The notes beneath the pieces are model-generated. The model was given only the letters and a program-made list of their open reading frames with translations, ran no database searches and was not told where the DNA came from. From positions 7,967-71,966 of IMG/VR virus record IMGVR_UViG_3300020607_000001: a stretch of DNA of 64,000 nucleotides; one strand, given 5' to 3'. Origin of the DNA: a virus. The translations under genes and the position numbers were made by a program. Shown here in pieces: positions 17,803 through 44,843 of the stretch. Every line of letters starts with the position of its first letter. The stretch's first letter is position 1.

Positions 17803-18449
17803 ACGAAGCCCCTATCGCTAAATCGGGTGTCCTCGTCGGTCACCTCAGATGTGTTGGATGTGTTTTCGATTGTATCGTCCACACACTTTTTGAGGTAGAG
17901 GCCGTAATACCCATCACCGCGTGCCTTATGTTCTTCCCCGCCCATATGGGTCAGATACAGACCTGCGACGTAAAGCGCCAGCACTTCGTAGAGATGATTT
18001 GGCAAATTCATGTCAGCATCAGTGTCCGGCAGCTCCGGATGATGCACATGGAACCAGACATCAACCGCTGGAGGATTGCACTCCATGAAGGTGTCAGAGA
18101 ACCGAAGTGTCTCTTGGTTTGGTTGCATGATGTGGACACTGTTCTTCGGAGTATGTTTCCGCTCATTGGCGGTCACGATCTCAAAGACAGAAACCAAATT
18201 TTCGAAGTCAGCTCCGGCACTTACGTCCAAAGGATATACGTTCTGGCCGTCAACAAATGTCAACGTCCGGACCTCCTCAAAGAGCTTCTTCTTCGAAGAC
18301 AGATCAACCAGACCTTGGTTGGTCAGCTTCAGAATGTGGTCGTGGTATTCCGGGAGGATAACCCCGGACTGGGACTCATCCACTGCGGCAGTATTACGCA
18401 ACTGGCCTACAGCAAGACGGTCCATAAAATCACAGAAATTGAGGATCAT
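17799..18449 (-). CDS. Head-tail adaptor/structural protein (N4 gp67-like)
   Basis: NQGLVDL, LALYVA and C-terminal RFSDRGFV; synteny next to terL. Confidence 0.75.
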   Translation of the reverse strand: MILNFCDFMDRLAVGQLRNTAAVDESQSGVILPEYHDHILKLTNQGLVDLSSKKKLFEEVRTLTFVDGQNVYPLDVSAGADFENLVSVFEIVTANERKHTPKNSVHIMQPNQETLRFSDTFMECNPPAVDVWFHVHHPELPDTDADMNLPNHLYEVLALYVAGLYLTHMGGEEHKARGDGYYGLYLKKCVDDTIENTSNTSEVTDEDTRFSDRGFV

Positions 18450-23056: not shown

Positions 23057-24031
23057 ATGGCTAATATTCTTTTCGCATCCAACAACGTGGCTCATTTTCC
23101 CGGTGCATCAACAGGAGCGGACAACACCCGCTTCGATGCAGCTCGTGTGCCATATTCCATTCGCTTGACCAACTATCAGCAAGTGTCTTCTCCGGTTTTC
23201 CAGCAAACAACTGGTGATGACACATGGTTCCACTTCCGGACCCACTGGTACAATGTCAAGTACAACTTCACAGGTACATGGTTCACAGCATTCGATGCTG
23301 CCAATAACACTCTGTTCACAATCCAGAAACGGAATGCGACCTACTCGTCTGACCCCCGTCTGATCCTGTATGATGGTTCGACTTCGTTAACCGATGATGG
23401 TTCATTGGCTTTGCCTGACGATCTGATCTCATCCATTGACATCCGTTTCCGTCAGACCTCTCTCGTCATTGAATGTGACATGTATGTGAACGGTGGCCTG
23501 TCTTGTTCGTTGGCATTCGCCAGCAACCCCAATGGTCGGGGACATCCGGTTCGTTTCCAACTGGGTGCCGGTATCGTGGACAACTTGACTGACTCGCAAG
23601 ACTTCTCTGAGATCTTGGTTGCAGATGCTGACACACGGAACGCACGTCTTGACTTGCTCCGTCCACAAGCAGCCGGTGCTTATGAACAGTGGGATGGTCA
23701 ATTGGCAACTCTTGCCGACGATGACTCGACCTCTGGAATGACCACCATTGATGCGGATCAGCGTCAGACAATGACCATGACCCCGTATGGAGGTGCTCCC
23801 AACATTTCCAACGTGGTTGCAGTCTCGACAACGACCCGTGGCCAAAACTCACCCACCCAGTTGCAACATACTGTTCGTCTTTCGGGTGTCGATTATGATG
23901 GCGTTGCTCATGATGTTGATTTCGCTCTCGAATATCACATCACCGACTTCAAAATTAACCCAGCAACTTCGCTCGCATGGGACGAAACTGATGTTGCGGC
24001 AGTTGAAGTTGGGTTCGTTTCTCGTGCATAA
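23057..24031 (+). CDS. Putative virion/receptor-binding protein, paralog of 43598-44560
   Basis: 324 aa, beta-rich, AAGGAG SD, C-terminal NPATSLAWDETDVAAVEVG. Confidence 0.65.
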   Translation: MANILFASNNVAHFPGASTGADNTRFDAARVPYSIRLTNYQQVSSPVFQQTTGDDTWFHFRTHWYNVKYNFTGTWFTAFDAANNTLFTIQKRNATYSSDPRLILYDGSTSLTDDGSLALPDDLISSIDIRFRQTSLVIECDMYVNGGLSCSLAFASNPNGRGHPVRFQLGAGIVDNLTDSQDFSEILVADADTRNARLDLLRPQAAGAYEQWDGQLATLADDDSTSGMTTIDADQRQTMTMTPYGGAPNISNVVAVSTTTRGQNSPTQLQHTVRLSGVDYDGVAHDVDFALEYHITDFKINPATSLAWDETDVAAVEVGFVSRA

Positions 24032-24112: not shown

Positions 24113-24211
24113 CAGGGGGACGCGAAGCTAGTCCGCGAATTTTTAGTCTTTAGTCTTATTATAGTTATGACTCTTTTTTCTTTGGATTTTTCAAACCAAA
24201 GGAAGAAACTC

Positions 24212-24718
24212 ATGATCCGACATCCAATGCTGAAGGCTTGGGCGGCCACGTTCGTCCGACGCTGGCACACTCAACCTCTTCTCTGTGACTCCCATGACCC
24301 GATTGGGGGCCACCAAGCTCGCTGCACGCACATGCTGCTCCTCTTCTGGCCTGACAGCACCCGTGACGCCATCATCGACTGTGTGATCCACGATCAGGGC
24401 GAGATCGCCTCTGGTGACATGGCTCGGCCTGCCAAACAGATGTTCCCTGACCTCCGGGACATGATGAGCAAGGTCGAAGGCCAAGAGATCCGTGATCAAG
24501 GCTGGAAACCCGGCCCCATCAACGGCATCGAACTCAAACGCCGGAAGTTCGTCGATCTATTCGACTCATACCTCTGGATGCTCCGTCATCGCCCCTCCAT
24601 GCAACGAAAGACAGAATGGGTTGAACAGAAAGACCTTCTGGACAACTGGGCCACTGAGCTGGGTGTGACAGACATGTTCCGTCATTACCTCGCAGCAGCC
24701 GAACGCTACTTCGATTAA
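24212..24718 (+). CDS. HD-domain phosphohydrolase (YfbR/DatZ-like)
   Basis: VRRWHT, GGHQ, IHDQGEIASGD..RPAK, KFVD motifs. Confidence 0.8.
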   Translation: MIRHPMLKAWAATFVRRWHTQPLLCDSHDPIGGHQARCTHMLLLFWPDSTRDAIIDCVIHDQGEIASGDMARPAKQMFPDLRDMMSKVEGQEIRDQGWKPGPINGIELKRRKFVDLFDSYLWMLRHRPSMQRKTEWVEQKDLLDNWATELGVTDMFRHYLAAAERYFD

Positions 24719-24736
24719 GCTGTCTCCTTTGGTTTC

Positions 24737-24793
24737 GGGGGTGTCACGGGTTGTGACCTGATCCGGTGGGTTCGACTCCCATCACCTCCACCA
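24737..24793 (+). ncRNA. 57-nt tRNA-like RNA (Ala acceptor stem + T-arm, no anticodon arm); tmRNA-TLD-like
   Basis: GGGGGTG pairs with CACCTCC including G3-U70. ACCA end. T-arm GTGGG-TTCGACT-CCCAT. Only 22 nt lie between the 5' acceptor strand and the T-arm. Confidence 0.7.
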
Positions 24794-25368
24794 TGAAATT
24801 AGGGAGGATCTTCTGCATTTTTACTCTCCAGTGGAAAATCCTCCCAATTACGGTACAGCGTAAAGAACATCATCGTGGTATATGTGCATCTGACAGAACA
24901 AATGTCCTGTTTCCCAGACTTGACAGCCTCGGTCTAAAATCCGTACTACGAAGCAGGTCTCGCCGGGACCAAGGGGCCTTCGCTGGGTGAAATCCGTTAC
25001 CACAAGAGTGATAACCATTGCCGCGTTCGCTCTCCCCAGTTGCCAGCCAGAATTCAAAACTCCTCCGGATTATCGACGAACCTTTCCCCGGAAAGGTGAG
25101 GAGCTATGGTCTGTATATCATAAACCTCAATTATGGTCCCCGGATCATCGAGTGCGAAAGCGTGAATTGAGATCGAAGATATGAACCAAAGAAGACAAAC
25201 GCAGTTTGTCTGATGCAGGTGAATATCTGAGATCGAAATTAGCGGTTTTGTGCGAGCCATTTAACCGGAACTCAGAGATAGCCTAACCCTGTTACTCTGC
25301 ACCTGAGTTCGCTTTAGGGCCGATCTTAAAAATCTCAAATTTTCATATCCCGATTTTTCATAACACAC

Positions 25369-25425
25369 GATGGGGGTAGGTTGATCTGTACACTCACCTC
25401 ACACATCGACCCCACCCCCCCCCAT
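25369..25425. repeat. Imperfect inverted repeat near the presumed genome terminus
   Basis: GATGGGGGTAGGTTGAT ... ATCGACCC-ACCCCCCCCATC-like arms, ~70 bp upstream of the first early promoter. Confidence 0.5.
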
Positions 25426-25496
25426 CTTCTTTTTTACACTCTTCATGGCCCCCCTATTTACACTGGAGTTCACACTCTGGCCTTACACACACATTC

Positions 25497-25512
25497 GCTT
25501 CGCTCCTTGTGG
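25497..25512 (+). promoter_or_regulatory. vRNAP early promoter 1
   Basis: Template strand 5'-TCC-ACAA-GGAGC-GAA-GC, same register as N4 TCC-AAAA-GAAGC-GGA-GC. Predicted +1 is G25511. Confidence 0.8.
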
Positions 25513-25544
25513 ATCTCATCAACCAACTCACAGGAGTACACACC

Positions 25545-25799
25545 ATGTCCATCTTTACATCCACCTCGGCAGCCGTCTGCTCAGTCCTCGACACTGTTAC
25601 CGACATCGGCACAGCTACAGGAAAAACCGTCTCTATGGCGACTACATACGTAGACAATCGTGCTACCTCTCAGCAACTCACTGACAAACAACACGTCATG
25701 CTTCGCACAGCTAAATCCCTCCGCATCGTGCAAGAAGAACTGAAAGAAGACGAGGAACTAACCGCTCTCTTCAATCAGCTCAAAGACGAGTTCAAGTAA
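25545..25799 (+). CDS. Early hypothetical protein
   Basis: AGGAG SD, 84 aa, first gene after promoter 1. Confidence 0.75.
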   Translation: MSIFTSTSAAVCSVLDTVTDIGTATGKTVSMATTYVDNRATSQQLTDKQHVMLRTAKSLRIVQEELKEDEELTALFNQLKDEFK

Positions 25800-25807
25800 C
25801 TCAACCA

Positions 25808-25844
25808 TCTCACCCTCACACCAGAGGGTGGGACACCTTCTTTT
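25808..25844 (+). terminator. Hairpin, possible terminator
   Basis: TCTCACCCTC-ACACCA-GAGGGTGGGA with a downstream CTTCTTTT. Confidence 0.45.
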
Positions 25845-25906
25845 CTGGATAGACAAACCCTGTCTGACAGACCTGAACTTAACCTAAACTCTGGAGACCT
25901 CCTCTT

Positions 25907-26086
25907 ATGCAAACCTCTTTAGCATCTGGAGTCGTAGGCACCTCTCACTTCCATATGTATTTCTACGGTCACCACATTCATCTCGTATGGGACAATGACT
26001 GGTCATCTATGATCTCACGTCCTGTTCACGCTGGTGATGATCCACAGGATACTGCAATGCAATGGAAAGAGGAGATTTGCTACTGA
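25907..26086 (+). CDS. Small early hypothetical protein (59 aa)
   Basis: Read manually: MQTSLASGVVGTSHFHMYFYGHHIHLVWDNDW...KEEICY. GGAG SD. Confidence 0.6.
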   Translation: MQTSLASGVVGTSHFHMYFYGHHIHLVWDNDWSSMISRPVHAGDDPQDTAMQWKEEICY

Positions 26087-27766: not shown

Positions 27767-28546
27767 ATGACATCAATGATCGACACACAGAAAGGCTTGG
27801 AAGAGCTGTTCTCACAAAACCAACTGCTCGACGTTCTGCGTGACCAGTTCTCACCTCTAACCGAAAACCCATTCATGCTTGATGTCGTGGTACAAATCTA
27901 TCTGCACAAGCAGGCAGATGTGCCAACGATGGTCGGACTGTTCTCGCCAAAATGGGGAGAGCCACAGGACGTTGCTGACATGCTGTTCGAAGCTGTCGAA
28001 GAAGACATGCTGGACTTCGATATGGAAACCGAAAGGTTCTCCCTGAAGTATGGCATCTCCGGCGATGTTGAAGACATGCTGGCACGCTACCAGTTCCCAC
28101 TTCCCATGATCGTTCAACCTCTTGAGGTGACCAAGAACACCATGGGATCAGGGTACTACGACACAAAAGGCAGCATCGTGCTGAACTCGTCTGAGATCTT
28201 CAAAGAAGAAGACGTGTGTCTGGACCATATCAACCGGGCAAACTCTGTCTGCCTCACGTTGAACATGGATGTGGTAGCATCTGCTGAAGGCAACATGATC
28301 ATTCCACAGAGAAAGATCGGTGAAGGCTTCGAAGACTTCCGGAAACGGAAAAAACAGGCTGCCACATTCTATGAGACCTCGCTCGACGTGATGAAGAACC
28401 TGATGTCCTTGGGCAACAAGTTCTGGCTGACACACAAGTATGACCGTCGTGGACGGACATATGCTGTCGGTTATCACGTCAACTCTCAAGGCACAGACTA
28501 CAACAAAGCTGTGCTTGAACTGTCTAGGAAAGAGGTCATCAAATGA
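27767..28546 (+). CDS. RNA polymerase II subunit 1 (N4 gp15-like)
   Basis: YQFPLPMIVQP, CLDHINRAN, LTHKYDRRGRTYAVGYHVNSQG (T7-type DxRGR.Y). Confidence 0.92.
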   Translation: MTSMIDTQKGLEELFSQNQLLDVLRDQFSPLTENPFMLDVVVQIYLHKQADVPTMVGLFSPKWGEPQDVADMLFEAVEEDMLDFDMETERFSLKYGISGDVEDMLARYQFPLPMIVQPLEVTKNTMGSGYYDTKGSIVLNSSEIFKEEDVCLDHINRANSVCLTLNMDVVASAEGNMIIPQRKIGEGFEDFRKRKKQAATFYETSLDVMKNLMSLGNKFWLTHKYDRRGRTYAVGYHVNSQGTDYNKAVLELSRKEVIK

Positions 28547-28659
28547 TCTTCTACAAACGTCAACTGATGGATTACAGCGACCAGCCTGATCCACGCAAAC
28601 AAACTGAGTTCGCCCAGAAAGTTCTAATCTGGGGTGCTCAGTTCAGAGGAGAAATCTGA
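28543..28659 (+). CDS. Small hypothetical protein (38 aa)
   Basis: MIFYKRQLMDYSDQPDPRKQTEFAQKVLIWGAQFRGEI; stop/start overlaps on both sides. Confidence 0.55.
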   Translation: MIFYKRQLMDYSDQPDPRKQTEFAQKVLIWGAQFRGEI

Positions 28660-44799: not shown

Positions 44800-44843
44800 C
44801 TCTTCTTTTTTGGTTTCGAACCAAGAAGAAAGGAAACCTCAAT

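Follow-up and report, generated by a model that had tools for sequence, protein, structure and literature searches.

What use a phage could have for a tRNA-like RNA that has no anticodon arm is the question raised by a 57-nt element at 24737–24793 of the 64-kb window analysed here, the whole stretch of DNA corresponding to bases 7967–71966 of a viral record that is complete at 71,966 bp and carries terminal repeats. A sequence-only reading had described the element as a mimic of tRNA-Ala or of the tmRNA TLD, and our own reading of the letters gave the same parse, with all parts on the plus strand. The 5' strand of the acceptor stem (24737–24743) pairs with 24783–24789 at seven of seven positions, the third pair being G:U (G3:U70). 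It is followed by a D-arm-like hairpin (24744–24756), assigned by eye, with a 4-bp stem (24744–24747/24753–24756) and a 5-nt G-rich loop (24748–24752), which appears to occupy the place of the tmRNA D-loop analogue. A 9-nt linker (24757–24765), carrying a GATC site at 24760–24763, replaces the anticodon arm or helix P2. The T arm (24766–24782) consists of a 5-bp stem (24766–24770/24778–24782), paired at five of five positions with a G:U outer pair, and a 7-nt loop (24771–24777). The remaining bases (24783–24793) supply the acceptor 3' strand, the discriminator A73 (A 24790) and an encoded CCA (24791–24793). Acceptor stem and T arm are 22 nt apart (24744–24765), which leaves no anticodon arm, as had been claimed. 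A separate downstream tag-coding piece was rejected, since inspection by eye revealed no tag-like frame in the following 1.2 kb (24794–26000), in line with the earlier claim that a tag frame is missing. Because the element has neither a resume codon nor a tag frame, it cannot tag proteins. Its letters point to an RNA that is tmRNA-like at both ends and carries no tag.

To gauge how readily such an arrangement arises by chance, both strands of the 64-kb window were scanned for a fully paired T stem (5/5) with the T-loop consensus and a fully paired acceptor stem (7/7) lying 10–139 nt upstream. The element was the single site returned. In first-order Markov simulations of the window (n=200), at least one such generic site occurred in 66 of 200, while sites that also had G3:U70 and A73 occurred in 2 of 200. 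The encoded CCA represents an additional chance factor of about 1/64 by our own arithmetic.

We then compared the element with RNA family models, searching Rfam unfiltered by gathering score. The best family was the tmRNA model RF00023, which matched the element from end to end (model positions 1–374) with 314 positions, the mRNA-like domain, deleted. The score was 31.8 bits (E = 3e-11) when 401 bases were searched and 40.3 bits (E = 3e-16) in a search of the 72-kb whole genome, both below the curated gathering score of 47 bits for this family. With gathering thresholds applied, Rfam gave no match to the element. In the same search mode, the ssrA gene of mycobacteriophage DS6A (28478–28560 of JN698994), a published 'TLD only' form, reached 43.2 bits, and ordinary tRNA genes of related phages scored 8–27 bits. 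ARAGORN found no tRNA or tmRNA gene in the window, and a whole-genome search with the tRNA model RF00005 at E <= 0.01 reported an unrelated site and not the element, so the expectation that standard tRNA callers would miss it was borne out. The unrelated site, outside the window (L282:750-825; bases 751–824 of the G000 contig), is the sole tRNA-model match in the phage genome, at 29.3 bits and barely above the cut-off; ARAGORN labels it tRNA-Ser(GGA), yet its 76 nt include no long variable arm.

Several identities could be set aside. The element is not a tRNA-Ala, as it has no anticodon arm and is called by neither ARAGORN nor RF00005. Nor is it a whole tmRNA: the message domain with its resume codon, tag frame and pseudoknots is missing, P2 is missing and the score is sub-threshold. 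A two-piece (permuted) tmRNA was rejected because the corresponding model, RF04321, gave only 11.8 bits (E = 2.6), and the G-rich run downstream is part of a self-contained hairpin. A phage attP copy of a tRNA or tmRNA 3' end was likewise rejected, as the 5' acceptor strand is present and the integrase family PF00589 was unmatched in the complete genome. The element instead appears to fit the tag-less 'TLD only' kind, with both tmRNA ends in one piece and the message part missing. The structural side of the sequence-only reading therefore stood, with RF00023 the best family and RF00005 silent. As a kind of RNA it is not novel, DS6A being already in print.

The likeness to tmRNA extends to individual bases. 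When the 3' 26-base pattern of the element was searched in bacterial genomes, at least 121 matches were found in at least 120 loci; among the 121 listed, 102 lay in ARAGORN-called tmRNA genes, five in tRNA genes (four Ala, one Arg) and the other 14 outside any called gene, the majority of them truncated at locus ends. No Alphaproteobacteria were among the matches listed. The acceptor stem and T loop of the element are identical to those of a full two-piece tmRNA in Ruegeria phage RpAliso, whose D-loop analogue has five consecutive bases in common with the element. As to the claim that the 5' part resembles the tmRNA D-loop analogue, the GG and the G-A-C end of the D region line up by eye with both the Rfam consensus and RpAliso. 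The RpAliso gene itself is unannotated (OR257569; L152:565-786, 912-1133), reaches 129.5 bits with RF04321 and has two Y RNA-like (YrlA) matches after it, both sub-threshold (34.7 and 42.3 bits).

The middle of the element departs from the tmRNA pattern. Its D region is one base longer than the D-loop analogue, and a 4-bp hairpin is predicted in place of the unpaired stretch. The element lacks helix P2, as well as the junction that usually precedes the T arm, and has only the linker there. The contacts of E. coli SmpB are described as D-loop A15, U17 and G19 together with A334 before the T arm (PMC8363625); of these bases the element aligns, by eye, only the G, which is predicted to lie inside the stem of the D hairpin. 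Binding of SmpB by the element is doubtful, because the contact bases are altered, the one aligned G is predicted to be paired and the 3' junction is different. Nearest-neighbour folding of the 57 nt further predicted a minimum-energy rod (-24.4 kcal/mol) that consumes the T arm and does not contain the D-arm-like hairpin. The tRNA-like fold came to -18.8 kcal/mol, and the T arm was present in ~4% of the predicted ensemble.

By its gene content, the phage is an N4-like podovirus of the Rhodovirinae, that is, a roseophage. It encodes N4-like RNA polymerase subunits, a portal and a terminase, and its portal is 72–79% identical to those of Sulfitobacter, Ruegeria, Dinoroseobacter and Roseobacter phages; judging from these relatives, its hosts are likely to be roseobacters (Alphaproteobacteria). 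We found neither an SmpB gene nor, by the PF00589 search, an integrase in the phage genome. Lacking its own SmpB, the phage would therefore have to use that of its host if it uses any. Upstream of the element lie a gp53-like gene (23057–24031) and, after it, a plus-strand gene at 24167–24718 for an HD-domain (YfbR-like) protein, which matched phrog_6047 (3e-24) and, below the cut-off, the Pfam YfbR-like family (21.2 bits); tblastn matches of the product are annotated as HD domain proteins. The stop codon of the HD gene is 18 nt before the start of the element, so that co-transcription of the two is possible. A terminator-like hairpin precedes the gene, and none with a U tract lies between gene and element. 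A link between the two was not supported, as the HD gene occurs in relatives of the phage that have no such element. The element is followed by about 0.7 kb of non-coding DNA and then by sequence with homology to the left end of DSS3phi2-type genomes, which makes it the last feature of the right genome arm.

Both flanks of the element carry further signals. A 9-nt motif taken for a start site had been placed 6 nt upstream by the sequence-only reading; at 24728–24736 on the plus strand it in fact abuts the first G of the element with a gap of 0 nt. The window holds eight exact copies of the motif, and 53 matches with at most one mismatch against 20.1 expected. The other exact copies are at 44809, 45750 and 62613 on the plus strand and at 18190, 29118, 53370 and 54322 on the minus strand. 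The three other plus-strand copies lie between genes, each after a pyrimidine run, and end 35–52 nt ahead of a start codon (ATG), and at two plus-strand copies the motif forms half of a short palindrome. On the other side, 8 nt after the CCA, a stable plus-strand hairpin without a U tract occupies 24802–24845 (-23.6 kcal/mol, z = -3.6), a stability equalled by 1 of 200 shuffles. This hairpin sits in the non-coding stretch toward the presumed genome end and might act as a 3' end, processing or protection element. No public run recorded as RNA was found to contain the stretch.

We asked what stands at the same place in relatives. In phiCB2047-B (HQ317387, L130:4218-5868), the right-end slot contains 14 annotated tRNA genes on both strands, two of them pseudo; phiCB2047-B is the nearest cultured relative, and its tRNA array stands where the window has the HD gene and the element. 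Three tRNA genes fill the slot in Silicibacter phage DSS3phi2, EE36phi1 and Roseovarius phages, and small ORFs in others. Searching 12 cultured Rhodovirinae records with RF00023 revealed no such element in 11 of them, DSS3phi2 alone having an anticodon-less match. This DSS3phi2 element is 113 nt long, unannotated and located at the very right end of the genome (FJ591093, 74434-74546; L135:1501-1613). G3:U70, A73 and CCA are all present, its T arm has the same 3' strand as that of the window element, and it contains two long internal hairpins; ARAGORN did not call it and found no anticodon. Ruegeria phages V12, V14, V17 and V21 carry it with 97.7% conservation, either unannotated or beneath a 'hypothetical protein' annotation. 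The slot also occurs with a longer tag-less relative and, in some phages, probably with nothing. Sanyabayvirus relatives have the HD gene and no element.

Contigs from four public runs (X2–X5) added relatives less than 90% identical to the window phage. The X3 contig keeps 24768–24805, comprising T arm, acceptor 3' strand, CCA and slightly beyond, and has 108 nt between HD gene stop and T arm versus 53 nt here. In the X2 contig, 24585–24791 is replaced by 144 unlike letters, and in X4/X5, 24585–24833 by 166 unlike letters. Should the HD gene retain its length at that end, little or no room is left, and these relatives probably have no element. The sequence-only reading had allowed that relatives might carry a full-length tRNA or tmRNA at this place, which would mark the element as a simple deletion relic; no full tmRNA was found in the slot, whereas tRNA arrays do occupy it in some relatives. 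As the slot is variable and conservation patchy, the element is an accessory, fast-changing feature rather than a core gene.

We next looked for anticodon-less elements in other viruses. With the 324-aa and 183-aa neighbour proteins as queries and the window's own record excluded, no close relative of the phage was found in viral contigs. Scanning viral contigs for a sequence pattern produced matches in at least 120 loci, and 86 of the sites among the matches listed had full acceptor pairing. ARAGORN called 50 of these 86 as tRNA genes (49 of them Ala), and the 36 uncalled sites comprised, by eye, 31 anticodon-less and five tRNA-Ala-like elements. There are hence at least 31 anticodon-less elements, with 25 distinct sequences in ~20 families, 58–87 nt long and borne by unrelated viral contigs (L010, L013, L015, L019, L022, L024, L025, L027, L031, L032, L034, L036, L049, L062, L072, L083, L085, L101, L103, L120 and L122, plus duplicates). 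Most of the 31 listed retain the canonical tmRNA D-loop analogue and a short capped P2. The exact T-loop sequence of the window element occurred, among the 86 viral rows listed, only in anticodon-less elements (16 rows, by eye). Four further contigs (L002–L005, for example L003:4062-4146) carry 83–88-nt elements whose acceptor stem and last 26 bases are exactly those of the window element. ARAGORN labels these tRNA-Ile(GAT), each adjoins a tRNA-Thr gene, and for L003 and L004, the two scanned with Rfam, the tmRNA model was best at 44 bits. Outside viruses, a TLD-like element of ~85 nt, tag-less and with its P2 capped, was seen in a contig of a bacterial metagenome-assembled genome (L235, about 1490–1576).

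Forms as short as the window element are much rarer. An exhaustive scan of viral contigs for forms of <=58 nt returned 57 stretches, six of them with full acceptor pairing. Three of the six belong to one 58-nt family (L034, L094 and L124, hereafter the L034 family), two are nested in a longer tRNA-like gene, and the sixth has the same sequence as one of the nested sites and carries an anticodon-type loop, which leaves the L034 family as the one other true family. Metagenome contigs L128 and L129 added to it, and a search of viral and metagenome contigs with the linker and 3' pattern, the window's own record being excluded, matched this family only. Its carrier is an unrelated, GC-rich phage in which a small terminase gene lies downstream of it. 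Its build is that of the window element, with acceptor stem, G-rich-loop hairpin, linker and T arm, and seven of the last eight linker bases are common to both. The D hairpin stem has 5 bp in the L034 family versus 4 bp in the window element, with different sequences, and for the L034 family the tRNA-like fold is the minimum-energy fold. Between L124 and L034, a compensatory change affects acceptor pair 7:66; the 5' strand lay outside the search pattern that found these two, and the stems of the mini elements were compared by eye. Because the L034 family shares the hairpin build, it supports the D-hairpin reading of the window element over the P2 pairing offered by the Rfam alignment, for which the family gives no support. 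Without P2, the 57-nt element is the most reduced tag-less TLD form seen in this analysis.

The anatomy of the element, its likeness to tmRNA, the absence of a tag, its genomic slot and the like elements in other phages were observed directly; expression, processing, charging, partner binding and an effect on the host are steps that we infer from them. The explanation we favour, to which we give about an even chance, is that the element is a minimal tag-less relative of the tmRNA TLD that competes with or substitutes for host tmRNA. It would be transcribed from its own start at the abutting putative start motif, or together with the upstream HD gene. RNase P would excise it from the transcript, and its 3' end would be trimmed back to the encoded CCA. 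Host alanyl-tRNA synthetase (AlaRS) would then charge it via G3:U70 and A73. Minihelices with G3:U70 are charged by AlaRS. EF-Tu, and possibly SmpB, would bind the charged RNA, which would compete with host tmRNA for AlaRS, EF-Tu, SmpB and stalled ribosomes. The outcome could be damped tagging and tmRNA-linked decay during infection, or a tag-free rescue as proposed for jakobid mitochondria. We favour a competitor or substitute of tmRNA because a DS6A-like molecule is described as strongly inhibiting tmRNA, perhaps by titrating SmpB (PMC4131195, citing Mao 2009), and because jakobid mitochondria, whose tmRNAs have no mRNA domain, are thought to rescue ribosomes in this tag-less way with imported SmpB (PMC3590771). 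Counting against the mechanism are the sub-gathering score, the absence of P2 and the junction, the predicted fold that is not tRNA-like and the patchy conservation. P2 is absent here as opposed to the capped P2 of DS6A and of most other viral examples.

A decaying relic, left by internal deletion from a longer tRNA- or tmRNA-like gene and without present function, would account for some of the same observations, and we regard it as unlikely while giving it some weight. It would suit a variable right-end slot that gains and loses tRNA-type genes, from 14 in phiCB2047-B to three in DSS3phi2, EE36phi1 and the Roseovarius phages, as well as the 113-nt relative in DSS3phi2, the longer stretch before the T arm in the X3 relative, the probable absence from the X2 and X4/X5 relatives and the predicted fold. 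Yet decay has spared every defining part: both stems pair throughout (7/7 and 5/5), and a canonical T loop, A73 and CCA remain. A clean succession of D hairpin, linker and T arm would be a rare outcome of random internal deletion, and an unrelated phage family (L034) has the same compact build together with a compensatory change. The element could also act in cis, as tRNA-like punctuation at which RNase P and 3' trimming set or stabilise the 3' end of the HD mRNA, the small RNA being a by-product, or, in a variant covered by the same estimate, as a mark for the end of right-arm transcription beside the genome terminus. The start 18 nt after the HD gene stop, the placing of the terminator-like hairpin before the HD gene with none bearing a U tract between the gene and the element, the strong hairpin 8 nt after the CCA and a position matching the right end of DSS3phi2-type genomes all agree with such a role. 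Punctuation would nevertheless have no need of an alanine identity set, and G3:U70, A73 and CCA are kept both here and in DSS3phi2; Sanyabayvirus relatives, moreover, have the HD gene without the element. We consider punctuation distinctly improbable.

The chance is similarly slim that the element is an acceptor-arm decoy, charged or uncharged and independent of SmpB, which soaks up a host factor or defence enzyme. The enzyme decoyed would read acceptor/T arms or CCA ends, or the RNA might serve as an off-ribosome alanine donor, a version we include in the same estimate. The missing P2 and the altered SmpB-contact bases, found beside a perfect acceptor/T half, speak for a decoy, and AcrIIIA1 (PMC11662646) is a published example of a phage protein turning fragments of tRNA and tmRNA against defence. 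No evident partner gene lies nearby, the neighbours being a weak YfbR-like HD protein and non-coding DNA, and the reading draws solely on absences. Related to it is a wider proposal that we put forward tentatively and think unlikely, namely that the P2-less hairpin-D form and the L034 family are not SmpB decoys but distinct phage-made, alanine-charged 'elbow-only' RNAs with a target of their own, and that anticodon-less RNAs with alanine identity form a widespread, mostly unannotated gene class, to which the ~20 or more families among the viral matches listed would belong. Such a target might be an enzyme of the host or a defence system recognising acceptor/T arms or aminoacyl ends; alternatively, the RNAs could donate alanine off the ribosome.

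If RNAs of the favoured kind, minimal tag-less relatives of the tmRNA TLD, do block or bypass trans-translation, they would give phages a compact tool against a near-universal bacterial quality control, and also serve as a minimal natural substrate with which to study how AlaRS, EF-Tu and SmpB recognise RNA. As far as our literature search reaches, phage tag-less tmRNA domains are represented in print by the single case of DS6A, and the full-text search returned no report of a tag-less TLD for N4-like phages or roseophages and no phage survey. The window element extends this kind to lytic N4-like phages of marine Alphaproteobacteria. Judging from our viral scans, RNAs of this type would seem to be common in viral contigs, where tRNA callers routinely miss or mislabel them.

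How the element relates to known systems can be seen by setting it beside each of them. The TLD of tmRNA is described as resembling tRNA-Ala minus the anticodon stem-loop, being charged by AlaRS and bound by EF-Tu, with SmpB filling the place of the missing anticodon arm (PMC8012679). With tRNA-Ala and alanine minihelices the element has the acceptor identity set in common; it differs from tRNA-Ala in having no anticodon arm and in a T loop of the type seen in tmRNA genes. The tag-less forms of organelles comprise the jakobid tmRNAs, of which that of Jakoba libera is described as having returned to a contiguous form from a two-piece ancestor (PMC3590771), and the ~65-bp mRNA-domain-less forms of Mallomonadaceae plastids (PMC11915505). 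Compared from their descriptions, these are like the element in lacking the tag domain and keeping G3:U70 and A73, and unlike it in being organellar and mostly two-piece. The DSS3phi2 element belongs to the same phage subfamily and slot, has G3:U70, A73, CCA and the same T-stem 3' strand, and is equally silent in ARAGORN; it is, however, twice as long, has two internal hairpins in place of the 22-nt middle and lies beside other neighbour genes. The closest published counterpart is the ssrA of DS6A, called 'TLD only' and 'little more than the TLD' by Hudson, Lau & Williams 2014 (PMC4131195), a form that the 2025 tmRNA database also covers (PMC11915505). Both are encoded by phages as a single piece that has an acceptor and a T arm but no tag frame, and both align to RF00023 end to end at sub-gathering scores (43.2 versus 40.3 bits). 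The DS6A ssrA is 83 nt long, with an unpaired D-loop analogue, a P2 hairpin and a 3' end that is not a full CCA, whereas the window element differs on all of these, with 57 nt, a D hairpin, no P2 and an encoded CCA. DS6A is a temperate actinophage and the window phage a lytic N4-like phage, whose likely hosts, the Alphaproteobacteria suggested by its relatives, use two-piece tmRNA. A tag-less phage tmRNA TLD has thus already been described in DS6A, and the window element is a further variant of this rare kind.
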